Both the position numbers and the translations under genes were made by a program. A stretch of DNA of 16,975 nucleotides from Candidatus Nanopusillus sp. (GTDB lineage Archaea > Nanobdellota > Nanobdellia > Nanobdellales > Nanobdellaceae). This document shows, in pieces, positions 72 to 16,975 of the stretch (positions are counted from its first letter, which is position 1; every line of letters starts with the position of its first letter). Location of the stretch: assembly GCA_028276785.1 (NCBI GenBank), contig JAPYVP010000009.1, forward strand, positions 1-16,975, given 5' to 3'. The notes under the pieces are model-generated. The model saw only the letters and a program-made list of their open reading frames with translations. It searched no databases and had not been told where the DNA came from.

Positions 72-164
72 AAAAGATATATAAAAATTGAAACTTTTAA
101 TTACAAAAAACCAAAAATATTATTTAACCTTTAATATATCATCATAAATTATATGTTTAATAAG

Positions 165-176: not shown

Positions 177-195
177 CAAAGATTTAAAGTTAATC

Positions 196-1500: not shown

Positions 1501-1503
1501 ATA

Positions 1504-1510
1504 TTTTTTT
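1504..1510 (+). terminator. oligo-T tract (T7) just after the phosphohexomutase stop codon; candidate archaeal terminator
   Basis: ttttttt begins 4 nt after the TAA at 1498-1500. Archaeal RNA polymerase terminates at oligo-T runs. T runs are frequent in this composition. Confidence 0.3.
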
Positions 1511-1541
1511 ATTTAAAATATGTAGATTAATCATATTAACA

Positions 1542-2507
1542 TTATCTCTTTCTTATACAATGTACTAACCCAATATATTTTAATTTTTCTTCTATAAATT
1601 TACATTCAAAATCTTTATTTAATTTATCTAATAATTTACTAACAGGAATTTTAGTATTATAAGCGTGATATTCAAATCCAATTTCATCAAATTCTTTTAT
1701 TGTATCATAATCCTTTAAAATAATATCATATTCACATCCTTCACAATCCATCTTTAATACTTGTGCATCTATATTATATTTTTCAATAATATCGCTTAAT
1801 TTACCTGCAAGTATTTTAATTCCTTTATTATTGGAATTAAAAAGAGAAAATGCTACATGAACAACATCTTTAGTATTAATTGTTATATAATCTTTTTCAT
1901 AATTTATTCCCATATTTATTGGAACAATTTTATCTTCCATATTATTTAATTTTATATTTTCTATCATTTCATTATAAGCATCCGGATGTGGTTCGATTGC
2001 ATATACTTTTTTAGCACCTTTTAGGATAAAATATATTGGTGAATCTCCAACAAAAGCACCAATATCTAATACATTTTTATCTTTTACATTAAAAAACTTA
2101 TAATCTTCTTCTTCAAATACTTCATATATTGATCCATAAAAGTGTTTAAATTTTACATTATTCTTTTCCCAATAATTTTTATAATATAACCAACCAGATT
2201 TTAATGATTTGATTATACTTCCAGGTCCCAAAATTTCAATTTCTCTTAAAGGTAACTGAAAAGTTTTATTATTTATTTTCAAATATATGTTGTCTTTGGT
2301 CATATTTTCAATATATTTTGAGTAATATATTATTCTAGGATAAAGAAATCTGGATACAGTTATAGTTTCTCCATTTTTCAATTTTAATTCAATATTTTGT
2401 TTTCTTAAAATTAAATATTGATATAAACTTGGTGATAAATTTTTAATTAATTTTCTTGATTTAAGTATAGCTTTAGGTCCAATTAGTAATTTTCTTATTT
2501 TATTCAT
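1542..2507 (-). CDS. FkbM-family SAM-dependent methyltransferase
   Basis: SAM motif I is VLDIGAFVGDSPIYF followed by KKVYAIEPHP. The FkbM-type motif LKMDCEGCEYDIL (consensus K-i-D-v-E-G-a-E) is also present. The gene sits inside a glycosyltransferase cluster. Confidence 0.75.
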   Translation of the reverse strand: MNKIRKLLIGPKAILKSRKLIKNLSPSLYQYLILRKQNIELKLKNGETITVSRFLYPRIIYYSKYIENMTKDNIYLKINNKTFQLPLREIEILGPGSIIKSLKSGWLYYKNYWEKNNVKFKHFYGSIYEVFEEEDYKFFNVKDKNVLDIGAFVGDSPIYFILKGAKKVYAIEPHPDAYNEMIENIKLNNMEDKIVPINMGINYEKDYITINTKDVVHVAFSLFNSNNKGIKILAGKLSDIIEKYNIDAQVLKMDCEGCEYDIILKDYDTIKEFDEIGFEYHAYNTKIPVSKLLDKLNKDFECKFIEEKLKYIGLVHCIRKR

Positions 2508-2575
2508 TATTATGGGTTTTTAAAAAATTTTTTAAATGTTATATATAAGTAAAATTCATAATTTTAATTAAACAA

Positions 2576-3760
2576 TTATTTATAGCTATCCAAAGCGTTT
2601 TCAAGTTTATTATCCAACTTTTTAGCAAAAGAACCCCAAGATATATCAATACCTTTTATATAATTTTTATTTTCTTTTCCTTTTTCTATTAATTTGTCTT
2701 TATTTTTAACAAAATATTCTAATGAATTGTATATTTCATTAATCATATGCTCTTCATAAAATTTTTCTTTTATCCAATAAACTCCAGGAGCATTCTTTAA
2801 TAATTCATAGTTTCCAGAAGGATAAACATTAATTAAATATTTTCCGGCAGCTAATGATTCTAAAGGAACTATTCCAAAATCCTCCATATATGGTATATAA
2901 ATACAAGCTAAAGACTTTGCATATAATTCTCTTAATTTTTCATCAGATAAATTTGAATATAATTTCACATTATTTTGTAAATTATATTGCTTAATTAATT
3001 TTAATATTTCTAAATAATATTTTTTGTTTTCAACATTTCCAACTAAATATAATTTATATTCTGAATACTTTTTAATAAACTTTGCAAATGCTTTAATTAA
3101 CATATCTTGTCTTTTTGATAATCCAATTCTGGCTACATATAAAAAATAATCTTCTGGATTATCATTATAAAAATTTAACAAATCTGCTCCTGGATATATA
3201 ACATCTGTTTTTTCTTTATCTATTAAATTTTTATCTAATGCCCTTTTTCTAGATAATTCTGAATTAAATATTGCAAAATCTATTTTCTTCCAAGCTTTTC
3301 TTTCTAGATAATTATAAACATTTAATGCTACTTTATAAGGTAAAAAATAATATTTTTTAAATCTATACTTAATGTTCCAATAAATATCATATTTATATGC
3401 AGCCCTTAAAACCGTATGAGTATATGTAACTTTTGGTATATCAAAATCTTGATTAAATAATATCAACTCGGCAATACCGCCTGTAGATATTAATAATAAA
3501 TCAAAATTATCAATATCATATTTTATTAATAAATTTAATAATGAGAATCCCCCTCTAATTAAATATCCTCTAAAAATCCTTTCATATTTTTTATCATATA
3601 AATTAATTATATCTTTTTCTTTAAAATCATAAGTTTTTTCTTTTATATAATTCCAAGTTAATATTTTTATTTTATTTTTAGATCTTTTATAGTATTCATA
3701 AACAACTCTTTCTGCACCACCTTTTGATTTTAACCAAGGATGAAATAACAAAATTTTCAT
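2576..3760 (-). CDS. glycosyltransferase, GT-B fold, family 4-like
   Basis: The N-terminus MKILLFHPWLKSKGGAERV is typical. The C-terminal half carries an E-x7-E motif (EDFGIVPLESLAAGK). Length is 394 aa. Confidence 0.8.
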   Translation of the reverse strand: MKILLFHPWLKSKGGAERVVYEYYKRSKNKIKILTWNYIKEKTYDFKEKDIINLYDKKYERIFRGYLIRGGFSLLNLLIKYDIDNFDLLLISTGGIAELILFNQDFDIPKVTYTHTVLRAAYKYDIYWNIKYRFKKYYFLPYKVALNVYNYLERKAWKKIDFAIFNSELSRKRALDKNLIDKEKTDVIYPGADLLNFYNDNPEDYFLYVARIGLSKRQDMLIKAFAKFIKKYSEYKLYLVGNVENKKYYLEILKLIKQYNLQNNVKLYSNLSDEKLRELYAKSLACIYIPYMEDFGIVPLESLAAGKYLINVYPSGNYELLKNAPGVYWIKEKFYEEHMINEIYNSLEYFVKNKDKLIEKGKENKNYIKGIDISWGSFAKKLDNKLENALDSYK

Positions 3761-3772
3761 AATAAAAAATAA

Positions 3773-4822
3773 TTATAAAGATTCATAAACTTTCTTAAAC
3801 ATCTCTTCTATCTTTGATAATATTATATTTGAATCAAATTTACTCGCAATTTCTCTAGCTTTTTTAGATAATTCTTCATATTTATCCTTATTATTTTTCC
3901 ATATTTGATAATATTTTAATATTCCATTGATATAGTCATCTATATTATTAAGTTTTGCATAATAAATTGATTCAGATTCCCCGAATGCACTTATTACATC
4001 TGGTAAATTTGATACAACTACAGGGTTCCCTACTGCTAAATTTTCCAATACAGCAAAAGGAAATATTTCATGTCTTGTTGGTAAGAACATTAAATTAACT
4101 GTACTTATAAAATTAATAAATTCTTCTTCACTTAACAGTCCTAAATATTTAACATTAGTTGGCAAATTTTCATATATTGGCTTATTACCGGTTATATAAA
4201 ATTCTATATCATTATATTTCTTTAGATTTTCAGCGACTTTTACTAAAATATCTATTCCTTTTTCAATATTAACAACACCTGGACAAATTATTTTAAATTT
4301 ATCATGACTTTTTTCTTTTGGTTTATACTTCTCTAATTCAATAAAATTTGGAATTACAAATATATTCTTAAAACCTCTTTTTCTATATATATTTGCTCTA
4401 TATTCAGTCAAAAAATGATGATAAGAATCTTTTATTTTTCTAGCAATTATATTTTCTAATAAAGAGTAATAAATTCTTTGGATAGGTTTATCTAAGGGAG
4501 AATGATGACCAAAAATAACTTTATTTGAATATTTTAATATGTCAATTTGTGTTCCAAACCAAACATAAAATGCATATGTTACCTCTGTATCTATTAAATA
4601 ACTTTTTATTTCGCTTATATCATGAAATAAGCCATATTTTTTCTTATGTTTAATTACTATATACTCAAAATTTAAATTATTTAAATCATACTTTTTATTA
4701 AAATCTGTAGTTATAACTTTAACATCATGTTTTTTAGATAAATAGGATGCAACTTTTATTATCCATTTTTCTCCACCCCTACTAAAAGATAGGTGTGGTA
4801 AATTAAATATAGCAATTTTCAT
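3773..4822 (-). CDS. glycosyltransferase, GT-B fold, family 4-like
   Basis: The N-terminus MKIAIFNLPHLSFSRGGEKW is typical, and an E-x7-E motif is present (HEIFPFAVLENLAVGNPVV). The gene lies 12 nt downstream of the preceding GT4 gene. Confidence 0.8.
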   Translation of the reverse strand: MKIAIFNLPHLSFSRGGEKWIIKVASYLSKKHDVKVITTDFNKKYDLNNLNFEYIVIKHKKKYGLFHDISEIKSYLIDTEVTYAFYVWFGTQIDILKYSNKVIFGHHSPLDKPIQRIYYSLLENIIARKIKDSYHHFLTEYRANIYRKRGFKNIFVIPNFIELEKYKPKEKSHDKFKIICPGVVNIEKGIDILVKVAENLKKYNDIEFYITGNKPIYENLPTNVKYLGLLSEEEFINFISTVNLMFLPTRHEIFPFAVLENLAVGNPVVVSNLPDVISAFGESESIYYAKLNNIDDYINGILKYYQIWKNNKDKYEELSKKAREIASKFDSNIILSKIEEMFKKVYESL

Positions 4823-4857
4823 TAACTATATAAAAATAAAAAAAGTTTTATAAATTT

Positions 4858-5757
4858 TTAAACATTTTGAATATTTAAATCCTCAAATATAAATTTTTTT
4901 AAATAATATTTTTTTAGATAATTTCTAAATAATTTATATAAAATAATCTTTGTTAATCTTTTAATATAATTTCTATCAAATATTAGTAAACATTCTAAAT
5001 ATTCCTTTAATGATATTTTATAATTAGTATTATATATAAGGTTTAATAGGATTTTATAACTTATTATTCCATATATTTGTCCTTTACATTTTGTTTTTTT
5101 ATAAATATATTGTAGATCCTGTAAAAGCATTTCTAATGTCTGTCTATTATACTTTTTGCCAGTTAGGTTCTCCTCGTGTCTTCTATAATAAGTTAATGGT
5201 TCATCTAATTTTATAGCTCTTTTATTAAAATAGCACAAAAGGCCAACATCTAAAATGTAATAGATTTTTCTGAGATAGTCTATTAATTTGTTTTTATCTT
5301 TAATATTTAGAATCATGCTACTATTATTAGTTCCTATTGTATATTTTGGTTTTTTCAATGGCCTTTCTTTATCATCTTGAATTATCATAATTTTGTGAAA
5401 AATTAAATATTCATCATACTTAATATTTTTTACAACTTCAAATATTTTACTAATTTTATTTTCTGTAAACATATCATCATCATCTAATAAAAATATTAAA
5501 TTACTAGAAGACTCTTTTATTCCTATAGCAAGTTCACTACCACAATAACGATCTGGACCATTTGGATCTAAATTTATTATCTTATAATTGGGAAAATTTT
5601 CTTTAATATAATTATCTATTTTTTCATCTTGATAATATTTTATAACAATTACTTCAATATCATTTAAATCTATTCCTTTTTGATTTTTAATACTTTGTAA
5701 TGCATCTAATATATATTTCTTTCTTAAATAATCCATTACTATTACCGAAGCTTTCAT
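4858..5757 (-). CDS. glycosyltransferase family 2 (GT-A fold)
   Basis: The N-terminus SVIVMDYLRKKYILDALQSIKNQ resembles the GT2 opening strand and helix. A DxD-type acidic motif (FLLDDDDMF) follows. Length is 299 aa. Confidence 0.75.
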   Translation of the reverse strand: MKASVIVMDYLRKKYILDALQSIKNQKGIDLNDIEVIVIKYYQDEKIDNYIKENFPNYKIINLDPNGPDRYCGSELAIGIKESSSNLIFLLDDDDMFTENKISKIFEVVKNIKYDEYLIFHKIMIIQDDKERPLKKPKYTIGTNNSSMILNIKDKNKLIDYLRKIYYILDVGLLCYFNKRAIKLDEPLTYYRRHEENLTGKKYNRQTLEMLLQDLQYIYKKTKCKGQIYGIISYKILLNLIYNTNYKISLKEYLECLLIFDRNYIKRLTKIILYKLFRNYLKKYYLKKFIFEDLNIQNV

Positions 5758-5804
5758 AAAAGAATATAATAAAAATAAAATTTAAATAATTTATAAATTA
5801 AATT

Positions 5805-6054
5805 ATGAGCCAATATATATTATTTTTAGCTTTTGAAATATCAGAAAAGGAATTTAAGAATAAAAATAAAATTTGTATCCGATAGACCAGGTCATGATAA
5901 AAGATATTGTATGAAAACCTCTCTATCTTATGAAGTAACACCATTAAAAGAAGGATTAAAGAAAACTTATGAATGGTATGTTAAAAATGAATGGTGGTGG
6001 AAACCACTAATAAATGATAAATTCTTTAAGGAAGATGAACCATGGAAAAAATAA
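5805..6054 (+). pseudogene. rfbB: C-terminal remnant of dTDP-glucose 4,6-dehydratase (about the last 60-80 codons of a roughly 320-codon gene)
   Basis: The tracked ORF 5833-6054 reads ...IKFVSDRPGHDKRYCMKTSLSYEVTPLKEGLKKTYEWYVKNEWWWKPL. This is the conserved RfbB/RmlB C-terminus (f-V-x-D-R-P-G-H-D-x-R-Y ... W-Y-x-x-N-x-x-W-W). The Rossmann N-terminus and the catalytic YxxxK region are absent. Upstream there are only stop codons and the GT2 promoter. A second short frame (ATG 5805, MSQYILFLAFEISEKEFKNKNKI) would join only through a frameshift in an A-run. Confidence 0.7.
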
Positions 6055-6395
6055 TTACTATCTTAGAGCCTTAATTATTTAATAAATTTTAGATATTGTA
6101 AAATCTAGGTTAATCTATATAATTTTCTATTAAAATTTCAAAATGAATATGCAAAAAATGTCGTATAACGTTAGTTATCCGACACAACTAAGCCAATAAT
6201 AACCGTAGATCTGATACTCTTTTTAGAACTGCAACAAAATTAATGCTAAAATACGATACGGGTTCCTTAATTGTTAATGGTCAAAGCTTACCAACATGGA
6301 TCCTTTGCTAAAAGAGACATTGTAATAATTGATAATAAAGATAGTAAAGGTAAGAGGGACTTAGTAATCTTCAGAAGGACGGCTTCTTTAAATAA

Positions 6396-6635
6396 TCAAT
6401 AATTGCTGAGCTTTCTATTAATACTTTCATCACTCCTCTTTCTCATTTCTTTAATTTCTCTCTCTAGTTCTTTAACTTCTTCTTCACTTAATATGCCAAA
6501 ATATTTCTCCAACTTTTTATTCCTCAAACTTAACGATTCTTCTATTAACTCCTCGATTATATCGCTAAAGCTTTTATTACCTTTTATCTCATTCAACTTT
6601 CTGTATACATCATCCCTTATCATTATTGTTTTCAT
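6396..6635 (-). CDS. vapB: ribbon-helix-helix antitoxin, VapB-like (archaeal short RHH antitoxin type)
   Basis: MKTIMIRDDVYRKLNEIKGNKSFSDIIEELI has a beta-strand, helix, helix RHH layout. It is followed by an E/K-rich tail, as in the archaeal antitoxins that normally precede PIN-domain VapC genes. Length is 79 aa. A TATA-like catataaatc lies about 25 nt upstream. Confidence 0.6.
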   Translation of the reverse strand: MKTIMIRDDVYRKLNEIKGNKSFSDIIEELIEESLSLRNKKLEKYFGILSEEEVKELEREIKEMRKRSDESINRKLSNY

Positions 6636-7014
6636 GATACAATTTTATAGATTTATATGCACTATAAGTAGATAAACTTTTAGATAAGTTTACCTTTAAG
6701 TAAATTTTATTACCTTATTTTTTTACATCTATTAATATATACCAATCTAAATGGTTTTTACTTTAAATATCTTTAAATTTATATATCTCTTTAGTATTTC
6801 TTTTAGCAAGAAATTTTAGATATTTTCTTATTAAATATATTTGTAATCTAGTGATTTTATTCCAACTAGCACTAGATAAAGCTAAACTAATCTTAAATAG
6901 AATGCTAGTAATTTATTAAAAGTAAGTTATCCAAAGTAGAAGTTATACATTATCTGTTTTATTATATCTTAAATGATTTGACCCCATACTATCTGAAGAT
7001 CTAAAAATATATTA

Positions 7015-7896
7015 TTAGCAACACATAATAAAATGAATATAATAAGGTAAAATTGTTAGACCAATAATGGACCATAATATGCTAACTATAATTGACATAG
7101 GTATAGATTTCTTCCAACTCACATTAAGTATATATTTATAGATAATAAAAGCAAATATAGAAGCTAAAACTCCCCCCATATAAAATGTTACAATATTTTC
7201 TTCCAATATATATGATAAAAAAGAAATTATAATTATTATAAAAGATACTGTTCCTGAAAGCATATTAACTACTAAAGTCTCTAAAAAGGATATATTTACC
7301 TTAGAATATTTAGCAGCCAAATAGGTAAGTATTGTAGATAAAATCAATCCCGCCATAAAACAGATTATTATGTCGCCAATACTTATTGCCAATGTTCCTA
7401 CCGGTGTATCTGCTGTAAATATTCCTAATGTTACTGGACCTAATACTGGTGTTGAAAATGCTATAATATAAAATATCATAGGCAAGTTTGAATTAAAAAT
7501 GAACTCTATTATAGTAGCTACAATAGATATAACAAAAGTTCTCCCCCAATCTAGATTAAACGCGACCTTATAGATAAATAAAGTTATTATAAAACTTATA
7601 ATCATCAAAAGGTTTGTTCCCCAAATAAGTAAAGTAAAATATAAATAATAATTATTTGAAATAGTGGGGGAAAAGTCCAATATTGTTATTAATATTGTTG
7701 TTAATATGGGAAATATTATTGCTGAAAGTATAGTAGCACCTAAAACCTTCTCAAATGATACATTTCTATTAAAATCTTTTGTAACAAAATAAATTGGTAT
7801 TGAAACCATAATCCATCCTACTACAAGAATTACTATCATTATCGTAATTGCTATCCCAATATCTACTGCTACTGCTAATAATTCTAGATTGCCCAT
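7015..7896 (-). CDS. polytopic integral membrane protein of unknown family with internal repeats
   Basis: The 293-aa ORF is almost entirely hydrophobic segments (about 8 TM). A loop motif recurs four times (see findings). I recognise no family. Confidence 0.6.
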   Translation of the reverse strand: MGNLELLAVAVDIGIAITIMIVILVVGWIMVSIPIYFVTKDFNRNVSFEKVLGATILSAIIFPILTTILITILDFSPTISNNYYLYFTLLIWGTNLLMIISFIITLFIYKVAFNLDWGRTFVISIVATIIEFIFNSNLPMIFYIIAFSTPVLGPVTLGIFTADTPVGTLAISIGDIIICFMAGLILSTILTYLAAKYSKVNISFLETLVVNMLSGTVSFIIIIISFLSYILEENIVTFYMGGVLASIFAFIIYKYILNVSWKKSIPMSIIVSILWSIIGLTILPYYIHFIMCC

Positions 7897-8315
7897 CCTA
7901 TAAAATATAAAATTTCTGTATATTTATATTGTTTTGGCTAAAGAATATTTAACATTTGTAAAATTTTTTATGGTATTAGTATGTGGATATCATAATATAA
8001 ATATTCAAAAGCTTCTGAAGAATATACCTTACATTGGAGCTAGATGGCATATTCAAACCAAAAAGAAATAGAGAACTATTGAAATCTTACTAATAGATGG
8101 GTCTTGAGTTTACTCCAGATTATTTCACAGTTTTAGTAAAAGACGAATCAGCTCTATGATCTAAAATAAAAATACATGATCTGCTTTCAGAAGAAATAAA
8201 AAAGATTTTAATAAATTCCCTCATAAATTTATATTATTTATCATATTGGGTAACTTCTCTAATGGATAATTTAGTATAATATATATTTTATTACTATTTT
8301 TATCAGGTTTAAACA

Positions 8316-8661
8316 TTATTTATATAACAACATTAGAATTTTAGTTAATGTATTAATCATTTTGATTGCATCTATTTCATCATCTTTAGAGAAATATTTG
8401 AGTTTTTCTATTGTATTTTTTATATTTAATTTTGGTGATTGTTTATCTTTATTTAATAGATTTTCGTAAATATATATAAGATCATTTGCAAAACACAATC
8501 CCAAAGCATAAGGATGTGGATATTTTTCCTGTATAAATCTTTCACATATTTTCCCATTTTTCTATTACTATATCTTTTTGATTAATATATCATGGATTAA
8601 AGTAATATAATAGTTCATCGTTCATATTAGAATTAATACTTCTAACATATTTATAAATCAT
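8316..8661 (-). pseudogene. probable decayed gene: three consecutive short reading-frame pieces; the last is the tracked 62-aa ORF
   Basis: On the minus strand, ATG 8661 gives MIYKYVRSINSNMNDELLYYFNP and then a stop. The next frame gives YINQKDIVIEKWENM and a stop. The third frame gives KNGKICERFIQEKYPHPYALGLCFANDLIYIYENLL...LLYK, which has no ATG and was tracked from a TTG. Joining the pieces needs two frameshifts. I recognise no family. Confidence 0.3.
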
Positions 8662-8770
8662 TAGAAGTTATACTTCTAATAATATTTAAGAATATTATGT
8701 GAAACAAATATTACTGCCCCCCATAACTATTTCATTAAGTAAATAATTGTCTAGACCAAATATAAAAAAT

Positions 8771-10075
8771 TTATAATAAAATTCCAATTAGTAATAGAAT
8801 TGCCCAAATTAATAAGATAATTCCAGAGAATATGTTCGCAATAGCTAATGTAAAGAATTTAGCTCCATAACTTCCCATTCTTTTTGATAATAAAGACATT
8901 ATAATATCATTCAAACTTGGGATTGAAGTTTTTACTGTTCTACCACCCATATTAATGCTACCTTTATTATATGTACTTGCTAAGAATAATCCTAAAATAC
9001 CTGTAGACATGTCTGGAACAGTAACCTTTACTGGTTTCATATTTATCATTTTTCCAGTATCTGCAAATCCACCTATAACAATATAATCTTCATTAATTGG
9101 TATATATTGTTCTACTAAATATGTATAGTAATGCTTCCTGAATGGCATAAAAGCTCTCTCTATTTTTGCTCCAATATTAAATTCTGATGGCAATACTTCG
9201 TCAGTCGTTACATATCTTTTTAAGTCTCTTGTTTTACTATGTTCCAATCTAAAACCATAATTTTTCATATTAAACAAATTTACTTGGGTGTTCGTACTTG
9301 CAGCTTGTTTTACATACGAAAGGACATCATCGCTAATCTTTTTAATAGCAAGCATACTTATCAAACCCAAAGTATTTGTTGCTAAACTATATGGCTGTAT
9401 TTCAATTATATTGGTTCTTACTTCAATATTTGGTGCCTTTTCTAAATCTACTGCTAAAAAACCAGTTTCATCTACAAGTAATGCAGGTATTCCGGCAGCA
9501 AAGCCATCTATAAATTTAGATTCCCAATATTCACTATTCCCTCTACTTACTTTATGTACATACCAAGTAGAAATAGAATAATATATACAATCCTGTCCAC
9601 TAATTGGTGATTTTAGAGGTTGGTGTCCGTATGGTATAAACTTCCCCTTAACTTTATTTAAACCATAAGTCGCAACATGTATTTTAGAAATCGGGGTATT
9701 GACTAAAATATTATATATTGTATATTTCTTAAAACCCAACATGATTAAGATAATAGATGATACTAATAGTACTACCGGAAATATTATTGTATCTGAAAAT
9801 AGCCACCAGAAAATAAATATGACTATATAAATTCCATAATCTATATAATTCTTTGCTTTAATATTTTTTGCATATGGGGGTATATAATTATGATATTCAG
9901 TTCTTGTGCTTGACAAATTTTTAGCATATGGTAATTCAGACGCTTTAAAAGTCCATTTTTTATTTTTCTGTTCATTTTCTTGTTGTTGATATTGAAAATT
10001 TTGAATATTTGTTTGTTGTAAATTTTCTCGTTTTTTATTTACAGGATTAAAAAAATTTGGAAAATTTTGCTGCAT
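8771..10075 (-). CDS. GIDE-domain membrane protein (prokaryotic MUL1/GIDE-like domain, no RING) with a Q/N-rich N-terminus
   Basis: Residues 1-40 are Q/N-rich. Residues 80-115 form a hydrophobic block and residues 406-434 form a C-terminal TM. The region between carries GIDE-like signatures: KVKGKFIPYGHQPLKSPISGQDCIYYSI...EYWESKF...IPALLVDETGFLAVDLEKAPNIEV and later YLVEQYIPINEDYIVIGGFADTGKMINMKPV...LGLFLAS. The start lies 4 nt after the lemA stop. Confidence 0.6.
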   Translation of the reverse strand: MQQNFPNFFNPVNKKRENLQQTNIQNFQYQQQENEQKNKKWTFKASELPYAKNLSSTRTEYHNYIPPYAKNIKAKNYIDYGIYIVIFIFWWLFSDTIIFPVVLLVSSIILIMLGFKKYTIYNILVNTPISKIHVATYGLNKVKGKFIPYGHQPLKSPISGQDCIYYSISTWYVHKVSRGNSEYWESKFIDGFAAGIPALLVDETGFLAVDLEKAPNIEVRTNIIEIQPYSLATNTLGLISMLAIKKISDDVLSYVKQAASTNTQVNLFNMKNYGFRLEHSKTRDLKRYVTTDEVLPSEFNIGAKIERAFMPFRKHYYTYLVEQYIPINEDYIVIGGFADTGKMINMKPVKVTVPDMSTGILGLFLASTYNKGSINMGGRTVKTSIPSLNDIIMSLLSKRMGSYGAKFFTLAIANIFSGIILLIWAILLLIGILL

Positions 10076-10079
10076 ATTT

Positions 10080-10655
10080 TCAGAATTCTAGCCTTGTAGA
10101 TACATCTTGTTTTGCTTCTTCAGGTGCTCTATATAAAGGCATTGGTTTTATACCAGCCATACCAGCAATAAAATTATATGGTATCTGTTCTATCTTTGTA
10201 TTTAACATTGTTACTGCTTCATTATAAAATTGTCTTGCATCTGCTAGTTGTGATTCTAACTCAACAATTATTTGCTGTAAGTGCATTACATTTTGATTAG
10301 CTTTTAACTCCGGATAATTTTCTATTACTGCAAATAGATATCTAAACATTCCCGTAATCTGATTTGATAAATTTATCTTTCCCTGTATATCATCTGGAGG
10401 TATACTCATAAATTGGGATCTCAATTGAGTTACCCTCTCAAAAACAGATTTTTCATATCTTAAATAACTACTAACTGTTTCTACTAATTTTATTAACATA
10501 TCATGTCTCTTCTGCAATAATACATCTATATTAGACCATGCCTTTTCTGCATTTTTCTTCAATGCTATTAGAGAGTTGTATACTGCTATATAAAATCCTA
10601 TTCCCAGTACTAAAAATACTACTAAAATAATGACAACAATAAGCCAAGACCCCAT
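10080..10655 (-). CDS. lemA: LemA family membrane protein
   Basis: There is an N-terminal TM (MGSWLIVVIILVVFLVLGIGFYIAV). LemA signatures follow: YNSLIALKKNAEKAWSNIDVLLQKRHDMLIKLVE, NYPELKANQNVMHLQQ, ARQFYNEAV and QIPYNFIAGMAGIKPMPLY. I chose the internal ATG at 10655 (191 aa, the usual LemA size), which has a TATA-like taaaatttaaaag about 29 nt upstream. The tracked ORF extends to 10751. Confidence 0.85.
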   Translation of the reverse strand: MGSWLIVVIILVVFLVLGIGFYIAVYNSLIALKKNAEKAWSNIDVLLQKRHDMLIKLVETVSSYLRYEKSVFERVTQLRSQFMSIPPDDIQGKINLSNQITGMFRYLFAVIENYPELKANQNVMHLQQIIVELESQLADARQFYNEAVTMLNTKIEQIPYNFIAGMAGIKPMPLYRAPEEAKQDVSTRLEF

Positions 10656-10927
10656 TAAAAGAATAAAAATCTTGTTACTTTTAAATTTTATTAACATTAA
10701 AACTTTATTTATATAATACAAAAAACAGACAGTAATTATCCTATATAACATTAAAAACTATAAAAATAGTTGATAATATAAATAATCATTTTAAAATTAT
10801 ATTTAACTTATATGATATGCAAATGCAGTTATCCTATTATCAATCATATTATCAATTATAAAATTTTGTCTTAATTTAATAAGATGTTTAATAAAGAATT
10901 TTTAAACATTATATTAAATTAATAGGT

Positions 10928-11560
10928 ATGGCAAATGAAGATTCTCTAGGTAAAGCTTTAACAAGAGTTATTATATATTCAGCAATATTCGTAATAGTAA
11001 TGGGAGTTGTACAGTGGTTCTTTACAGGAGGATTACAAATGCTATATAATATGACAGGTATTGGGGCAATTTTAGGATTAGAAAATTATTCAATATATGC
11101 TATTATCCTTGTAATGATTATATTTGGATGGTTCGTAATAGTTTCAGTAGCATCAATGTTTTATGCAATGTTTAAACCAAAGTATGGAGAATCTTCAGCA
11201 TCAGCAATAAGAAGTTTAATAAAAATTTTGGGAATTGGTGGTATATTTGCAGGTATCGCTGGTGCAGCTGGTGGGGGCGTTGCAGGAGTAGCATTAGGAG
11301 GTTTTATTGGTATGATAATAGGTTTTGCAACACAACAAGTTTTAAGCCAAGCTATTGCAGGTGTATTCTTATTATTAAGTAAACCATTCGAACTTGGAGA
11401 TGTTGTAGATGTAGCTGGAGAGACTGAAATAAAAATAATAGATATAAATGCAATGTTTACAAAAGCATTAAGAAATGACGGAAATACGGTATTAATTCCA
11501 AATAATATGATAATTTCACAAAAAATAGTAATAAGAAAGAAAGCTAAAGGGCAGCAATAA
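10928..11560 (+). CDS. small MscS-like mechanosensitive channel protein (short form)
   Basis: A Gly/Ala-rich pore-helix region (GGIFAGIAGAAGGGVAGVALGGFIGMIIGFATQQVLSQAIAGVFLLLSKPFELGDVVDV) is followed by beta-domain motifs (IKIIDINAMFTKALRNDGNTVLIPNNMI). This matches the MscS core pattern. At 210 aa the protein has no room for the usual C-terminal alpha/beta domain. Confidence 0.7.
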   Translation: MANEDSLGKALTRVIIYSAIFVIVMGVVQWFFTGGLQMLYNMTGIGAILGLENYSIYAIILVMIIFGWFVIVSVASMFYAMFKPKYGESSASAIRSLIKILGIGGIFAGIAGAAGGGVAGVALGGFIGMIIGFATQQVLSQAIAGVFLLLSKPFELGDVVDVAGETEIKIIDINAMFTKALRNDGNTVLIPNNMIISQKIVIRKKAKGQQ

Positions 11561-12464
11561 TTTCTGTATATTTATTATATATTTCATAAATCTTTTTTGG
11601 ATTATTATCTAAATATTCTCCTAAAGTATATCCCAATATCCTCCCATAATTCTCTATTTCTTTAAATAATTCCCTGTTTTCTTCAATTAAACCTATAGTA
11701 TTTCTTATGATATTCTGAAGTTTTTTATTATATATAAATTCCAACATTCTTTTCAAAGTATTTAAGTATTCTTCTCCACTTTTGAATATATAGACATTTT
11801 TAGATATTTCTTCAATTTCTTTTTTATCTAGTTTTCTATATTTTTCAAAGAAACCATCCAATAATCCATTAACAAAAGAAGCAAAAACAAAATTAATTAT
11901 TTCAAATGGATTTACATAATATTTCTTTTTTATTATATTTAAAATTATTTCTTCCGCAAATTTCTTTCCCATTCTATATGGTAATAAATTAAAATCTAAA
12001 TTTTGATATATTAAAATATTGTCCAATTCAAATGCAAGAATTAACCCCCATTTTTCTACAGCTTTTTTATCAATACAGACTGAAAATTCTTTCTTATCAA
12101 AAGATTCATAATTAAACGGTACTCCCATTATTTCTTCTAGTCCTTCGTAAAGTGATATACACATTTTTGTAGTATTTTCAGGTAATTGATAACTAGAATA
12201 ATCAATAATTATTTCTTTATTATGCATTGACCGGAAGTAATGAAAAAATTCTAAATTTTTTATTGATCTATACTCAACTTTAAAGTGTTTCATAATTTCT
12301 CTATTATTTTTCAACTTCTTTTTTATATTTTCTACTTCATTTAATAAGTATTTAGACTTATAAATACCATTCTTGAAATATAAAAATAGTGTAATCAGCA
12401 TAAGGCTTATGATATTTATTGTTTGTCTTTGTAAAATTTTGTCAAGATTATGTTCCATTATCAT
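11544..12464 (-). CDS. hypothetical protein with one N-terminal TM anchor and a soluble, largely helical domain of about 270 aa
   Basis: This is a long 306-aa ORF with a hydrophobic stretch (INIISLMLITLFLYF) near the N-terminus. I recognise no motif. Its 3' end overlaps the convergent MscS-like gene by 17 nt. Confidence 0.5.
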   Translation of the reverse strand: MIMEHNLDKILQRQTINIISLMLITLFLYFKNGIYKSKYLLNEVENIKKKLKNNREIMKHFKVEYRSIKNLEFFHYFRSMHNKEIIIDYSSYQLPENTTKMCISLYEGLEEIMGVPFNYESFDKKEFSVCIDKKAVEKWGLILAFELDNILIYQNLDFNLLPYRMGKKFAEEIILNIIKKKYYVNPFEIINFVFASFVNGLLDGFFEKYRKLDKKEIEEISKNVYIFKSGEEYLNTLKRMLEFIYNKKLQNIIRNTIGLIEENRELFKEIENYGRILGYTLGEYLDNNPKKIYEIYNKYTEIIAAL

Positions 12465-12893
12465 AAATTTATTCTGGCAAAACTTTTATTTTTGTTATTT
12501 AGTAGTAAGTCTATTTATAAATCTAATAAATTAAACTAGACATTTGAATTTCACTAAATGTTTAATAATAAACGTCAATAAAGAATAATATTATATAAGG
12601 ACATTCTAATCTTGTTTATCCTAAAGATCTGGCATTTCTAATATATATAATAGTGTCTTAAAATATAATAGGATATAGAACAAAAAATAAATTATATAAT
12701 TTTTTATAAAATCTCTTAAATTAATATTCATTAATCTTTTGCCTTTTTAGAGAAGATAAAACCTTTAGATAATTATATATGATAATCCTTAATAATCACT
12801 CAGAAATCCATAAAACTTTACTAATCTTTTTTTCATATAATAAAATTTTTCATATCTATTTATTTTTAAATTTCCATATACTTAATATAAAAA

Positions 12894-13325
12894 ATGATCT
12901 CAATACCAACCTGGTTTATATATGCCTTATTAGGAGCAATATTTGCGGCTTTTTCTACAATATTTGCCAAAATCGGATTACAAGGAATAAATTCTACTAC
13001 TGTAACAACCCTTAGATCAATTATTATGACATTTGTTATATTTATTATATTTATGTTAGAAATTAGAGATATAAACATCTTATTTAATTTGTCTAATAAA
13101 GATTATATATTTATAATATTGAGTGCTATATTTGGTGCACTTTCCTGGATAGCTTTCTTTTATGCACTAAAAATTGGAGAAGCTAGTAATGTTAGTATAG
13201 TAGATAAATCTAGTCTTTTATTTGTTATTTTATTAAGTATCTTAATATTAAATGAAAAAATAACAATTCAAAAGGCTATTGCTAGTATATTAATGTTTAT
13301 TGCTTTAGTATTATTAGTTATATGA
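12894..13325 (+). CDS. small DMT-superfamily transporter with a single EamA-like domain
   Basis: The 143-aa ORF has 4-5 hydrophobic helices. The N-terminus WFIYALLGAIFAAFSTIFAKIGLQGINSTTVTTLRSI and the segment SWIAFFYALKIGEASNVSIVDKSSLLFVILLSILILNEKIT match the half-size EamA pattern. Confidence 0.65.
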   Translation: MISIPTWFIYALLGAIFAAFSTIFAKIGLQGINSTTVTTLRSIIMTFVIFIIFMLEIRDINILFNLSNKDYIFIILSAIFGALSWIAFFYALKIGEASNVSIVDKSSLLFVILLSILILNEKITIQKAIASILMFIALVLLVI

Positions 13326-13342
13326 TCTTTTAATATTGATTA

Positions 13343-14413
13343 TTAGTTAGAATCATTAATCATATATTCTATTAAATCATTAACATATGGATTATTCCAC
13401 AATCCAAAAGGATCACCATTATATCCATTCCAATTGTATATTCCAATTATTTCTATACCCATATCACGTAATTGATTAATTATGTTTTTATAATATTTTA
13501 TTGTGGCTCGATATCCCTCTTCAGAAGGACCATTCCAATATCCTAAACCCCCAGAACTTATATAACCTTTTAAATCCCCATTTCTAAATCCTAACTCACC
13601 CATAAAAAATTTAACATTATTTTTATCCGCAAATTGCTTATATTGCATAATAATACTTTTCATATATTCACTCATTGAAATATTTCTATCATTATAGATA
13701 TAATCTCCATATAATTCTAAACCAATCATATCTAGTCTTATTCCATAATTATTTAGCAAATAATTATATAATTCCACTATCCTTTTAGAATTTCCCATAT
13801 CTACATAATAAAATAATTTCGCCTCTGGTAAATATTCTTTCATTAAGAGATAATAGTGTGCTAATTGTTCTATTGGAACTGCATTAATTTCACTAAATCC
13901 AATAACAATATTTTTTCCACTATTAGTAATATTTGATAAATATTTTAAAAATTCTCTAATATCTTGATCATATTGTGACAAATCTGTAATACTATTTCTA
14001 TCAGTTGTAACGAACAAATTTACATAAATTGGTTTATTATTTTTATTATTTTCATATAAATATAATATTTGCTCCAAAGAATGATTATAATTATTATCAA
14101 AGGTTATTATAACACCTTCTGTTATAGTTAAATTAGTCTGAAAATATTGATCTAATAATCTATAAGTTCCATTATTCGGTCCCCATGGAACATTCCAAAA
14201 TATATAATACTGTTGATTATTTAAATTATTGAAAGAACCATTATGTAAATCTAAATTTGAAATTTCTGCTGAATAATTATTCAATTTATTATTTTGGAAA
14301 TCTTGATATGAACTTTTATTTATTCCATATTGAAAAATTAAAGTTCCCAAAATAATAGCTCCCAATAATCCAGTCAATCCTTTTAAAAAATCTCTTCTAC
14401 TTATATTTACCAT
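13343..14413 (-). CDS. Tat-signal secreted or anchored protein, putative TIM-barrel glycoside hydrolase (clan GH-A/GH5-like)
   Basis: A twin-arginine motif (SRRDFLKGL) plus h-region is present at the N-terminus. The candidate nucleophile strand FFMGELGF resembles the GH5 pattern i-G-E-f-G, and the candidate acid/base strand is IVIGFSEINA. There are many N-x-S/T sequons. The hydrolase call is only motif-level. Confidence 0.4.
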   Translation of the reverse strand: MVNISRRDFLKGLTGLLGAIILGTLIFQYGINKSSYQDFQNNKLNNYSAEISNLDLHNGSFNNLNNQQYYIFWNVPWGPNNGTYRLLDQYFQTNLTITEGVIITFDNNYNHSLEQILYLYENNKNNKPIYVNLFVTTDRNSITDLSQYDQDIREFLKYLSNITNSGKNIVIGFSEINAVPIEQLAHYYLLMKEYLPEAKLFYYVDMGNSKRIVELYNYLLNNYGIRLDMIGLELYGDYIYNDRNISMSEYMKSIIMQYKQFADKNNVKFFMGELGFRNGDLKGYISSGGLGYWNGPSEEGYRATIKYYKNIINQLRDMGIEIIGIYNWNGYNGDPFGLWNNPYVNDLIEYMINDSN

Positions 14414-14429
14414 TTAATATAAAAAATTA

Positions 14430-15521
14430 CTAATCTGAGACATAAGGATTGCCTTTATCTGGTATAAATAATATAATTGTACCCTTATAATCTTTTACAG
14501 TAAATATTGGAGCACCATTTTCATATTTACCTTTGTAATCTACTGTTGCAACTGTATCTACATGCAAAATTCCGTAGCTTGTTGGATTTTTATCATTTGG
14601 TTTTCCTAAAATATAGCTAGCTAATTTAATAGCATTTTTTGCTTCATTTACTTGCTGTCCATTTTGATATACTATTATTATACTATCACTATTATAATCG
14701 TTTTTTAGTTGATTACTTCCTCCCCAAACACTATATGGATATGGACCATCCTCCGACATTGGCATTAATGCCAATGCTTTTCCTTTTTTTAGAGTTTCAA
14801 CTATATTATATACATCTTTATCTGAAATTATTATATTATAATATATGTTAGAAGCGGGTAATATCCATTTATCATCCAGTTCAATAGCTTTATTTACGTT
14901 TGCTCTTCCTAATACAAAGTATACTGAATAATTACCTTTATTATATGAATTATATTCTTTTACTCTTGAAAATATATTTGCTATATTTATATCACCTCTT
15001 GATAGATATCTTAAGGGAATTTCAATTACTGCTTTGTTTCGTGTATAACGACTCTCTACTGATAGAATTGCATTATCACCGACTATTTTCGCATCTAATA
15101 TTTCTAAAACTGTAAACTCTAGATTACTATTTCCAAATAATAATTCTTCTAAAGTTCTTGGACTTTGTACTGTAGTAGTTGTAGTTGTTGTTGGTGATGG
15201 TTTTGTTAAAGTTTCTGTCTTAGTTTCTGTAACTGTTTCTGTCTTTGTAACTGTCTTAGTAACTGTTTCTGTTTCTGTTTTAGTAACTGGTGGTTGTGTA
15301 TATGTTGTAGTTTTAGTTATGGTTACGATTTCCGTTTTCGGTTCTGGTGTTGATGTGTATGGTGTTTGAGTGTCTGTATACCGTTTTGATCCTTCTTTAA
15401 AAATACCAGATAAACCAGAATACATGATTGCTGATGTAATTGCTGCAGTTGCTACACTAGTAGCTATGATTTTAAGAAAATCTCTTCTGGTAATTTGTCC
15501 TGTATTTTGGGTTTGTGCCAT
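14430..15521 (-). CDS. Tat-signal surface or secreted protein with a Thr-rich repeat stalk and an unknown C-terminal domain of about 240 aa
   Basis: The twin-arginine motif is ITRRDFLKIIATSVATAAITSA. A Thr-rich region follows at residues about 50-118 (KTETETVTKTVTKTETVTETKTETLTKPSPTTTTTTT), and then a globular domain with no motif I recognise. The gene lies 16 nt upstream of the hydrolase-like gene on the same strand. Confidence 0.6.
   Translation of the reverse strand: MAQTQNTGQITRRDFLKIIATSVATAAITSAIMYSGLSGIFKEGSKRYTDTQTPYTSTPEPKTEIVTITKTTTYTQPPVTKTETETVTKTVTKTETVTETKTETLTKPSPTTTTTTTVQSPRTLEELLFGNSNLEFTVLEILDAKIVGDNAILSVESRYTRNKAVIEIPLRYLSRGDINIANIFSRVKEYNSYNKGNYSVYFVLGRANVNKAIELDDKWILPASNIYYNIIISDKDVYNIVETLKKGKALALMPMSEDGPYPYSVWGGSNQLKNDYNSDSIIIVYQNGQQVNEAKNAIKLASYILGKPNDKNPTSYGILHVDTVATVDYKGKYENGAPIFTVKDYKGTIILFIPDKGNPYVSD
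15168..15374 (-). repeat. in-frame Thr-codon tandem repeat tract (T-K/E-T-E/V units plus a poly-Thr run) encoding a linker or stalk
   Basis: On the plus strand the unit gtttctgt recurs four times in aaGTTTCTGTcttaGTTTCTGTaactGTTTCTGTctttgtaactgtcttagtaactGTTTCTGTttctgtttt. It is followed by tgtagtagttgtagttgttgttggt, which is the poly-Thr run. Confidence 0.8.
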
Positions 15522-15540
15522 ATAATGATATTGTTAGAAT

Positions 15541-15575
15541 ATATTATAAATTTTTCTTATATTATAAATTTTTCT
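15541..15575 (-). promoter_or_regulatory. tandemly duplicated BRE/TATA-like promoter core upstream of the Tat/Thr-rich gene
   Basis: atattataaatttttct occurs at 15541-15557 and again, perfectly, at 15559-15575. On the minus strand each copy reads agaaaaatttataatat, a purine-rich BRE-like element followed by tttataa. The proximal TATA is centred about 27 nt from ATG 15521. Confidence 0.5.
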
Positions 15576-15690
15576 ATCCTAACAATCTCTTAATAACAGC
15601 AAATATATTATATATCAATGGCATTCAAAAGAATCTTACAAAAACTTATATGAAATTAAAAGAATTAATATTAGATATTTAATTAAAAAT

Positions 15691-16338
15691 TTATTGGGTA
15701 TTTTCTAATATTTTTTTAATTTCCAATAATTTATTTTGTAATAATTTATATCTACTAATTATTTCTTCTTTTTCTCTACTAATTTTATCTAAATCAGATT
15801 TTATTTTGCCAATTTCTATTTGCAAATTTTTAATCATTTCGTCTTTTTGATTTATAGTATTTTTCAGATCATCTCTTTCTTTTCTTAACTTTTCTATTTC
15901 TTCTCTTAAATTTTTTATTTGATTTTTTAGATCTTCTAATTCTCTATTAGAACTATTAAATGATATTATTAAATTTAATTGTCCAGATTTTAATTTTTCA
16001 TATGTTTCTATTATAAGAGAACCTGCCTTTGTTTTTCCGCTAATGTGATTTCTTATAGTCTCTTCAGATCTTCCCAATTCATCTGCAATTAAACTTATAG
16101 GCATTCCTGCTTTATATCTTGCATAAGCTGCTGCTGCAATTGCTAAACTATCAACCCATGTAGATTTTTCATTTGGATCTTTTATCAATTCTAATATCTC
16201 TGGTCTATATAAAGTTCCTATAATTAGAAATGTTTCTAATTTTTTTATATCATTTTTTCCCATAGGATTTAGTGGTATATTTTTAGGATCTATACCCATT
16301 TTTTCTGATTGTGATTGTGTAGAAATAGTATCTACCAT
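15691..16338 (-). CDS. helix-turn-helix DNA-binding protein with a long C-terminal coiled coil
   Basis: Residues about 78-100 (MPISLIADELGRSEETIRNHISG) look like a classic HTH, preceded by the helix AIAAAAYARYKAG. Residues about 130-215 are heptad-like and K/E/L/I-rich (ELEDLKNQIKNLREEIEKLRKERDDLKNTINQKDEMIKNLQIEIGKIKSDLDKI...). M14 is an alternative start. Confidence 0.55.
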   Translation of the reverse strand: MVDTISTQSQSEKMGIDPKNIPLNPMGKNDIKKLETFLIIGTLYRPEILELIKDPNEKSTWVDSLAIAAAAYARYKAGMPISLIADELGRSEETIRNHISGKTKAGSLIIETYEKLKSGQLNLIISFNSSNRELEDLKNQIKNLREEIEKLRKERDDLKNTINQKDEMIKNLQIEIGKIKSDLDKISREKEEIISRYKLLQNKLLEIKKILENTQ

Positions 16339-16361
16339 AACAATATAGTTGTAAATTAATC

Positions 16362-16369
16362 TTTATAAA
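16362..16369 (-). promoter_or_regulatory. candidate TATA box for the HTH/coiled-coil gene
   Basis: tttataaa is centred about 27 nt upstream of ATG 16338, with no Shine-Dalgarno sequence. Specificity is weak in AT-rich DNA. Confidence 0.3.
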
Positions 16370-16413
16370 TTAAACGAAGAAACTAAAAAATTAATATTCA
16401 AAATATATTAAAA

Positions 16414-16782
16414 TTATTCTATATCAATTTTCCAAATAATAAGTGCTAATAATGCTTCTATTATATCTATTATCAACGTTATTCCAGCTAGTATGTTTGT
16501 AAATAAGGCATTTATATCACCATTTCTAATGTAATGGACATATCCAAAAATTAATGTTAATAACATTATTAACCAAAATATTATGTTTGGTAAATAGTAT
16601 TTTCTCCAATTTAATAAGAATATTAACCCAGATATTATAGATAATCCTACAAACATTCCTACAAATGCTCCTAATAATAAAGATACATTTATTGCTATTG
16701 CTCCTGCTACTAACATATGTATTCCAGCCCAAAAAGTAGCTAATAACATTCCAACCCAACCAATTATATTTTTTATTTCCAT
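16414..16782 (-). CDS. small integral membrane protein (about 4 TM), unknown family
   Basis: The 122-aa ORF consists of four hydrophobic segments separated by short polar loops. I recognise no motif. Confidence 0.5.
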   Translation of the reverse strand: MEIKNIIGWVGMLLATFWAGIHMLVAGAIAINVSLLLGAFVGMFVGLSIISGLIFLLNWRKYYLPNIIFWLIMLLTLIFGYVHYIRNGDINALFTNILAGITLIIDIIEALLALIIWKIDIE

Positions 16783-16851
16783 CTTGTAACTTTGTTATAA
16801 GAATTTATAAAATCTATAAAATTTATATTTAAATAAACATTATAAATAAAG

Positions 16852-16975
16852 ATGAGAGGAAAAATTTTTGATAGTCTTATGCTATTTATAGGATATTATC
16901 TTCCAATATTTATTATAATTCTTGCAGGAGTTATATTTATTTTAACTTCAATATTTAAATATTACCATATTTATA
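16852..16975 (+). CDS. 5' end of a membrane protein gene (runs off the right edge)
   Basis: ATG 16852 opens MRGKIFDSLMLFIGYYLPIFIIILAGVIFILTSIFKYYHIY, which stays open to the window end and is hydrophobic. Only about 41 codons are visible. Confidence 0.35.
   Translation, partial: MRGKIFDSLMLFIGYYLPIFIIILAGVIFILTSIFKYYHIY

Follow-up and report, generated by a model that had tools for sequence, protein, structure and literature searches.

Within the widespread LemA family, MamQ was as of 2016 the sole member tied to any cellular process; it is required for the formation of the magnetosome membrane and has been proposed to act as a hub in the cytoplasmic membrane (PMC4902198). Expression of lemA is induced after deletion of sppA (PMC13236525), and conserved LemA-DUF2207 pairs, in which LemA lies beside a second membrane-anchored protein, have been described (PMC12631010). 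BAM/GIDE domains are known in bacteria and archaea, and their conserved function has been called an open question (PMC4457424). The present analysis concerns a locus in which these two families meet: a lemA gene followed directly by a gene whose product is assigned, by comparison of profiles, to the GIDE/BAM superfamily. The locus is found in Candidatus Nanopusillus sp., on contig JAPYVP010000009.1 (‘the window’ denotes the whole stretch that was analysed, i.e. positions 1 to 16,975 of the forward strand, 16,975 nt). A survey of other genomes shows that LemA and GIDE proteins are near-obligate neighbours over very distant lineages, in either gene order and also as fused proteins. The pair probably forms a membrane-anchored two-protein complex with a role as a scaffold or in membrane homeostasis, and not as a ubiquitin ligase.

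The GC content of the window is ~21-30% throughout, in a Nanopusillus genome of ~23% GC, and the nearest named relatives of the window proteins come from Candidatus Nanopusillus and Nanobsidianus, in line with the ‘archaeal-looking’ genome that had been described by an earlier model-made annotation of the bare letters (the sequence-only reading). A contig of a Nanopusillus metagenome-assembled genome (MAG), JBMSAQ010000028.1, is ~92-94% identical in DNA over the lemA-GIDE locus. Both open reading frames (ORFs) are found on the minus strand where they had previously been placed, and the 4-nt spacing claimed for them is exact: the LemA stop codon TGA (10082-10080) is followed by the junction AAAT (10076-10079, minus strand, read directly) and then by the ATG of the second gene at 10075. 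The locus is best explained as an operon of two genes in a Nanopusillus-like nanoarchaeon, with lemA leading and a GIDE/BAM-domain gene following.

The first gene encodes a genuine LemA protein, consisting of a single N-terminal transmembrane (TM) helix (10575-10646, minus strand, from a hydropathy scan) and a helical bundle. Its maximal ORF of 223 aa (10080-10751, minus strand) matches Pfam LemA (PF04011) with an E of 3e-44 and 150.9 bits (cut-off 26.2) over model positions 1-146 of 149, and a phmmer search aligns its residues 27-181 with residues 11-163 of PDB 2ETD chain 2etd_A, the ‘lemA protein’ of T. maritima (E 8.4e-21); the helical-bundle domain, as supported by these two matches, covers residues 71-218 of the 223-aa ORF (10098-10541, minus strand). 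The start of the gene has to be corrected, however: position 10751 is unconserved, with an in-frame stop there in a 94%-identical relative (L004). Because of this upstream stop, and because homologues comprise 188-191 aa and begin with MGSW or MEVW, the true start is likely to be ATG 10655 (191 aa, MGSWLIVV...), ATG 10697 being a possible one. Compared with the MamQ equivalog model (NCBIfam NF040966), the protein scores 73.4 bits against a cut-off of 250, and is thus not a MamQ equivalog.

The second gene (8771-10075, minus strand) encodes a protein of 434 aa, for which profile searches and hhalign point to a divergent, RING-less membrane protein of the GIDE/BAM superfamily, an assignment that holds at the profile-profile level only. 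In a Pfam scan the GIDE model (PF12483, gathering threshold 23.6 bits) was matched neither by the ORF (E up to 0.1) nor by the 23 members of its clade (the ORF and 22 relatives; E up to 10). Searches of NCBIfam, PADLOC and PDB sequences with the 434-aa ORF yielded nothing useful, and PDB sequence searches with the GIDE protein and with two profiles returned no relatives. The close family of the ORF consists of 44 clusters, almost all of them metagenomic or Nanoarchaeota proteins without names, and also includes two 34%-identical proteins, one from a Micrarchaeia MAG and one from a bin labelled ‘Methanothrix’.

The connection to GIDE becomes apparent with profiles. A 23-member profile of the ORF family (A1), searched against 1.84 billion representatives, retrieved 607 proteins at E up to 1e-3, and 24 of 60 sampled distant relatives match Pfam GIDE (best 3.5e-18); the A1 hidden Markov model search connects the clade to GIDE proteins with E down to 1e-36. 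Furthermore, when A1 is compared by hhalign with a set of 46 classical GIDE proteins of ~250 aa (A3), 44 of which match PF12483, the two align with a probability of 99.8% and an E of 1.7e-29 over 242 columns, from the TM preceding the domain through the C-terminal TM. The GIDE assignment made in the sequence-only reading is therefore upheld by this comparison, although the direct hmmscan that it had proposed fails. The ORF escapes the Pfam model because some 80 of its residues (247-326) occupy the place of ~34 in classical members.

Positions P157, C163, D202, G205, E322 and G335 are invariant or near-invariant both in the ORF family and in the wider GIDE superfamily, and C163, D202, G205, E322 and G335 fall on such columns of the alignments A3 and A4. 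The superfamily motif columns SPxSGxxCxYY, PFxLxDxTGxxxV and ExxIxPxxxxYxxG are all present. In the alignments they correspond to PLKSPISGQDCIYYSI at residues 153-168 (9572-9619, minus strand, with the near-invariant P157 and C163), IPALLVDETGFLAVD at residues 196-210 (9446-9490, minus strand, with the invariant D202 and the near-invariant G205) and VEQYIPINEDYIVIGG at residues 321-336 (9068-9115, minus strand, with E322 and G335), and it is on these conserved columns that the motifs formerly quoted as GIDE hallmarks sit. Neither a RING, a zinc finger nor any other Pfam domain was matched in the 434-aa ORF, its 22 relatives likewise matching no Pfam family (E up to 10), and the protein ends at its last TM, which agrees with its former description as a MUL1-like domain without a RING.

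Along the protein, the N-terminal low-complexity region (residues 1-45; 9941-10075, minus strand) is rich in glutamine and asparagine, varies in length among the homologues of alignment A1, and has a predicted local distance difference test (pLDDT) score below 50 for residues 1-47 in the AlphaFold2 model. It is followed in A1 by a conserved, clade-specific juxtamembrane motif, NLSSTRTEYHNYIPPYAKNIKAKNY (residues 50-77; 9845-9928, minus strand), whose columns N53-Y77 are invariant or near-invariant even in the Micrarchaeia homologues at 34% identity and are missing from classical GIDE proteins. The hydrophobic block that had been noted next to it is real, but consists of two hydrophobic helices forming a TM hairpin (residues 78-118; 9722-9844, minus strand), as indicated by AlphaFold2 (helices at 80-93 and 99-126), hydropathy and flanking lysine or arginine (K/R) residues; the protein thus gains a third TM, where classical GIDE proteins have one TM in this region. 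The GIDE/BAM beta-rich domain spans residues 127-365 (8981-9697, minus strand), as delimited by hhalign and a domain-only AlphaFold2 model. In the latter it is beta-rich with one long helix and is predicted with a pLDDT of 87.9 and a predicted template-modelling score of 0.84 (full-length model of the ORF: pLDDT 69.6). It is interrupted, within the region of the Pfam GIDE model, by a lineage-specific expansion of ~55 aa (about residues 262-318; 9122-9292, minus strand), at which hhalign sets 80 query residues (247-326) opposite 34 template residues and AlphaFold2 gives a pLDDT below 50 for residues 298-312. A further insert, found in the closest relatives of the ORF only, precedes the last TM, a C-terminal helix (residues 405-434; 8774-8863, minus strand; AlphaFold2 and hydropathy) with which the protein ends in the membrane, with no tail. 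The domain is therefore sandwiched between TMs (TM 95-118, domain 127-365, TM 405-434), and the low-complexity region, the soluble domain and the C-terminal TM of the sequence-only reading all proved to be real.

Searches at the level of structure were less informative. Foldseek comparisons of the full-length and domain models with the PDB gave nothing significant, the best being weak arrestin-like/Spo0M beta-sandwich matches with a probability of 0.2 or below. Against BFVD, the GIDE domain model matched only giant-virus ORFans of ~210-250 aa with low template-modelling scores (~0.35), namely Klosneuvirus A0A1V0SLC3 (E 8e-5), Satyrvirus and Tupanvirus; judging from these models, they may be GIDE-like proteins in Mimiviridae.

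The linkage of the two genes extends across genomes. In the clade of the window itself, LemA lies directly upstream in 7/7 distinct loci, separated from GIDE by -8 to +4 nt; besides the window, these come from Nanobsidianus, from Micrarchaeia, from the ‘Methanothrix’ bin and, in three cases, from other Nanopusillus. LemA is also adjacent in all five of the sampled distant relatives, being upstream of P0053 (L010, gap 4 nt), P0088 (L014, gap 13 nt) and P0175 (L013, gap 225 nt), and downstream in the orders GIDE-GIDE-LemA of P0135 (L012) and GIDE-LemA of P0120 (L011). A C-terminal gene fragment that precedes P0120 in L011 is one which we take to be HtpX/M48-like, by its ‘THPPIEERIARLE’ motif. 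The classical set A3 is too diverse for a scan of loci, and metagenomes were scanned for classical GIDE with a narrower alignment (A5), which yielded 80 loci, 73 of them distinct and 65 with enough flanking DNA to be judged. LemA lies immediately downstream on the same strand in 63/65 of these, one gene further in one and nowhere in the remaining one, although all 73 metagenomic loci represent one subfamily (37-46% identity to P0120) and are phylogenetically non-independent.

More specifically, nature has also joined the two families covalently: P0110 and P0130 (~775 aa) are natural GIDE-GIDE-LemA fusions. Gene order, furthermore, is inverted between groups, LemA coming first in the DPANN-type clade and GIDE first in the classical group. 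Since adjacency survives this inversion, selection on co-expression can be argued for rather than inherited synteny. That the LemA-GIDE genetic module is real can be regarded as virtually certain. The neighbourhood check suggested by the sequence-only reading, once carried out, thus confirms an adjacency beyond chance, by the 7/7, 5/5 and 63/65 loci and by the natural fusions. Chance adjacency of LemA and GIDE was considered as an explanation and excluded, the linkage being far above chance. As a separate observation, GIDE genes can be amplified in tandem, with two before LemA in L012 (2190-3774) and five in a row in L019 (330-4024), an arrangement that matches the GIDE-GIDE-LemA order of the two fusions.

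No recurrent third gene besides LemA was found by clustering of neighbours at 79 loci, which revealed only lineage-specific housekeeping synteny (tyrosyl-tRNA synthetase, a 453-aa ORF) and a minority M48 peptidase. The domain can also exist without an adjacent LemA, as is apparent from two haloarchaeal megaplasmid GIDE genes with no LemA within 2.5 kb. These LemA-less genes are on a Halostagnicola megaplasmid (L095) and a Salinirubellus plasmid (L096), and in L096 the neighbours of GIDE are a prohibitin (SPFH) gene and a DUF3592 gene.

The fusions are also instructive with regard to membrane topology. In both P0110 and P0130 the number of TMs that separate the LemA domain from the last GIDE domain is exactly two, so that the GIDE and LemA domains should lie on the same side of the membrane. 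As to which side this is, K/R residues in 39 classical GIDE proteins average 3.15 and 3.23 in the 15-residue stretches that adjoin the two TMs on the side of the domain, as compared with 0.44 and 0.31 in the short N- and C-terminal tails. In 73 LemA partners of GIDE genes there are none ahead of the TM, and the 15 residues that follow it contain 3.1 on average. Taken together with the positive-inside rule, this distribution would place both soluble domains in the cytoplasm, and we consider such an orientation fairly probable. In the window clade there are 3 K/R before TM1 and 2-3 after TM2, and the extra TM would bring the conserved N-terminal motif to the cytoplasm as well. Some homologues extend beyond the membrane at the other end: P0043 (residues 540-685), P0044 and P0088 (residues 364-508), from L003, L009 and L014, continue past the last TM with a linker rich in S/T, to which a Cys-containing domain of ~110 aa is attached. 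This domain (…CSWNGGNVTIYxGxGxSGYV…), which occurs in Micrarchaeial homologues and P0088 and for which no Pfam family was matched, is presumably extracellular. Beyond what the sequence-only reading had described, the locus thus has a third TM, a LemA that is probably shorter, the reverse of the classical gene order, and soluble domains that are predicted to face the cytoplasm.

An alternative to this orientation retains the same complex but turns both soluble domains outward, to the pseudo-periplasm or S-layer side, where they would sense or organise the outer face, for example the host-contact zone of an ectosymbiont. It is kept as the main rival because two papers conflict with a cytoplasmic placement, one locating the BAM domain of MUL1 in the intermembrane space (PMC4457424) and the other, a review, giving the C-terminal domain of LemA as predicted to be extracellular or lumenal (PMC3905215); moreover, the topology of the fusions demands a shared side only and leaves the side itself free. 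However, the distribution of K/R speaks strongly for cytoplasmic domains in both proteins, and the S/T-rich and Cys-containing domains of some homologues lie beyond the last TM, i.e. on the other side from the GIDE domain. The conservation of a free Cys and the absence of a signal peptide also speak against an outward-facing domain, as does an AlphaFold3 model in which the LemA-like domain of the mycobacterial ML0451c forms a scaffold at the cytoplasmic face (bioRxiv 10.64898/2026.07.15.738315), in agreement with the cytoplasmic orientation. On balance, the outward arrangement appears unlikely.

For a complex with both domains in the cytoplasm, the following mechanism can be proposed. The two genes would be read into a single lemA-GIDE transcript, and termination-reinitiation coupling across the 4-nt junction would lead to coupled, roughly equimolar synthesis. 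LemA and GIDE would then assemble into a membrane-anchored hetero-complex, in which the LemA helical bundle touches the GIDE beta-domain at the cytoplasmic face while the GIDE domain is clamped flat on the membrane by its flanking TMs. LemA might serve as the hub or adaptor, as has been proposed for MamQ and ML0451c, with GIDE as its membrane-apposed partner, and in some lineages the GIDE protein would also bear a domain on the far face of the membrane. The variability of that far-side domain (a RING in MUL1, an extracellular domain in Micrarchaeia, none here) suggests that TM-GIDE-TM is a generic transmembrane coupling or scaffold module. A functional complex is well supported genetically because adjacency is enriched and natural fusions exist, and on these sequence-derived grounds it is reasonably probable that the LemA and GIDE proteins associate directly as a physical complex. 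Most likely the pair would have a housekeeping role, as a scaffold involved in organising the membrane or in membrane stress, an assumption made because of three precedents, namely MamQ, the ML0451c scaffold and the induction of lemA on loss of sppA. Any specific role in membrane organisation or stress, being drawn by analogy, is tentative, and so is the surveillance or remodelling function put forward in the sequence-only reading.

Several points weigh against this interpretation and should be kept together. Neither the Pfam model nor structural comparison with the PDB recognizes the 434-aa protein, so that its place in the superfamily depends on profiles. The metagenomic loci come from a single subfamily, and the haloarchaeal genes do without a neighbouring LemA. 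For the cytoplasmic orientation the positive-inside rule is the sole basis, and the published placements of the MUL1 BAM domain and of the LemA C-terminal domain are at odds with it. Finally, distant relatives of the LemA protein had to serve as the basis for extrapolating a functional role.

A more far-reaching form of the cytoplasmic scaffold would regard LemA-GIDE as a machine of ancient origin, common among prokaryotes, that organises, bends or monitors the cytoplasmic membrane from inside, and as the prokaryotic ancestor of the MUL1/MAPL BAM module. This seems doubtful to us; were it true, retention of the pair in minimal DPANN genomes would mean that it is near-essential, perhaps for the membrane at the contact between symbiont and host, and the ancestral function of the MUL1 BAM domain would be revealed.

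The pair may also be read in terms of membrane-protein quality control, with GIDE as the adaptor or substrate presenter, or the regulated substrate, of a membrane metalloprotease and LemA as a cofactor. M48 (HtpX-like) peptidase genes do occur within two genes of GIDE in 6/79 loci, the putative HtpX-like fragment lies ahead of P0120 in L011, a HExxH protein follows GIDE in the Nanopusillus locus L007 and has left a remnant in the window, lemA is induced on loss of SppA (PMC13236525), and Omi/HtrA2 cleaves the BAM domain of MUL1 (PMC4457424), which is offered as an analogy. Protease neighbours are nevertheless a small minority, LemA being the sole near-universal partner, and the HExxH protein of L007 matches no Pfam family and has decayed in the window while lemA-GIDE is intact, so that this explanation is distinctly improbable. 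The remnant itself lies in an ORF-poor spacer of 874 bp downstream of the GIDE gene (7897-8770), and comprises ~50 C-terminal codons (8409-8561, minus strand) of the 222-aa HExxH (‘VTHEIGHS’) protein, the gene for which is still whole in L007, where it comes next after GIDE (5392-6060); in comparison with the latter, the gene in the window looks like one that is decaying.

Even less credible is the view of the pair as a conflict system of two genes, acting in abortive infection, as a toxin-antitoxin or against viruses, with an effector that disrupts membranes. The compact two-gene format, in which both products are membrane proteins, the tandem amplification of GIDE (five copies in L019, two in L012) and the presence of a VapB gene and a VapC remnant nearby in the window are points in its favour, and LemA shows a weak PADLOC match to TmtA (E 0.0095), which is sub-threshold, with no stretch passing alone. 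Yet neither the GIDE ORF nor P0120 nor the fusion P0110 matches any PADLOC family, and no match was found in 50,697 phage records or in mobilisable plasmids, the only matches being those on haloarchaeal megaplasmids. The very small genomes of DPANN archaea also retain the pair, its flanks being conserved, GIDE is passed on together with LemA across phyla, and conservation is uniform and high in both proteins, which is atypical of fast-evolving defence genes; taken together, these points make the explanation highly unlikely. The VapB gene of the window (6396-6635, minus strand; Pfam VAPB_antitox 7e-24) is intact, whereas only the first 15 codons of its VapC/PIN partner are left (6386-6430), the latter being intact in L007 (6473-7037; PIN 4e-13); by this comparison, the window VapB is an orphaned antitoxin.

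That the 434-aa ORF is a genuine E3 ubiquitin/SUMO ligase has next to no chance of being correct: nothing more than the Pfam/RefSeq name ‘E3 ubiquitin ligase family protein’ and electronically inferred Gene Ontology (GO) terms on relatives speaks for it, the catalytic ligase domain is absent, no prokaryotic BAM protein has a RING (PMC4457424), and the label of the relatives is inapplicable because the ORF has no RING and ends inside its last TM. Annotations such as GO ‘protein ubiquitination’ or ‘E3 ubiquitin ligase’ on RING-less prokaryotic homologues (e.g. in RefSeq, for L095/L096) are therefore misleading.

The surroundings of the operon are in part conserved. The intergenic region upstream of lemA (10752-10927, unstranded, from the ORF map) is common to lemA and a divergent MscS-like gene and is presumed to be the promoter region of the lemA-GIDE operon. 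A sigma-70 scan could assign no promoter (26 sites, as compared with 21.5±4.6 in shuffles), that model being inapplicable to archaea, and the same promoter/terminator scan, which is uninformative in an archaeon of 23% GC, found no terminators in the window; Rfam and tRNA scans of the window were empty. The MscS-like gene (10928-11560, plus strand) is small (210 aa) and matches Pfam MS_channel_2nd with an E of 4.8e-12, over the beta-domain only. In the 94%-identical relative L004 the window bases 11057-11426 are missing from this gene, which is thus polymorphic for an indel or a truncation. On the other side of the operon, a gene for a polytopic membrane protein of 293 aa with a weak Yip1 match (7015-7896, minus strand) shares synteny, at 50% identity, with the gene that follows GIDE in N. 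acidilobi, flanking synteny being conserved. Shorter Yip1-like paralogues are located on both sides of lemA-GIDE in L001 (3814-4293 and 6458-7369) and in L002 (3844-4275 and 6223-6639).

At one end of the window, a sugar-metabolism/glycosylation cluster (196-5757) consists of a phosphoglucomutase/phosphomannomutase gene on the plus strand and, on the minus strand, genes for an FkbM-type methyltransferase, two GT1/GT4 glycosyltransferases and one GT2 glycosyltransferase. Beside it lies a 73-aa ORF (5833-6054, plus strand; …DRPGHDKRYCM…WYVKNEWWW) that has no Pfam match and may correspond, though this is unconfirmed, to the C-terminal end of a dTDP-glucose 4,6-dehydratase, in which case it is what is left of a truncated gene. 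Towards the other end, ORFs of 356, 363, 122 and 306 aa (13343-15521, 16414-16782 and 11544-12464, all on the minus strand) match no Pfam family at E up to 0.001, and an ORF of 215 aa (15691-16338) has weak coiled-coil-type matches only.

Among known systems, the eukaryotic mitochondrial outer-membrane ligase MUL1 (also MAPL, MULAN or GIDE; PF12483) has the same core as the 434-aa ORF, in which a beta-rich domain is set between two TMs. The homology runs, at profile level, through the classical prokaryotic GIDE proteins, MUL1 itself being outside the alignments; it is with the Pfam-verified prokaryotic members that the ORF shares the C, D-x-x-G and E...G columns. Unlike MUL1, the ORF is archaeal and has no C-terminal RING, carries a cytosolic motif and one additional TM at the N-terminus, and scores under the threshold of Pfam. 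According to the prediction its domain would lie in the cytoplasm and not in the intermembrane space, and it is encoded with LemA, whereas MUL1 is not. Classical prokaryotic GIDE proteins (~250 aa) are homologous over the whole TM-domain-TM unit and have the same LemA partner. They differ in gene order, with GIDE first in 63/65 loci and LemA first here, and the ORF exceeds them by ~125 N-terminal residues with one more TM, by the ~55-aa expansion and by the insert before the last TM.

With regard to the partner, the window LemA is a clear member of the family that includes MamQ and T. maritima LemA. MamQ is the best functional precedent, although the window has no magnetosome genes and its LemA is partnered by GIDE. 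In other genomes, LemA can also be encoded next to TPM-domain proteins. Compared with the LemA-DUF2207 and LemA-TPM pairs, the partner family is a different one, and there is no DUF2207 or TPM gene in the window. SPFH/stomatin-NfeD genes form widespread two-gene operons of membrane-anchored proteins that are thought to build membrane scaffolds. The likeness to these is an analogy only, with no relation of sequence or fold detected in the PDB searches, although a prohibitin gene does adjoin one of the haloarchaeal GIDE genes. No paper pairing LemA with GIDE, MUL1, MAPL or DUF3592 was found in the literature covered, which was incomplete, while LemA+GIDE fusion architectures are already visible in domain databases. 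Set beside these systems, the protein of the window adds to a known domain family a new form that Pfam fails to detect, and the gene pair to which it belongs is conserved but uncharacterised. For the window itself this amounts to solid annotation rather than a surprise, and the near-obligate pairing, its DPANN extension beyond Pfam and the predicted shared membrane face provide a testable handle on both families.

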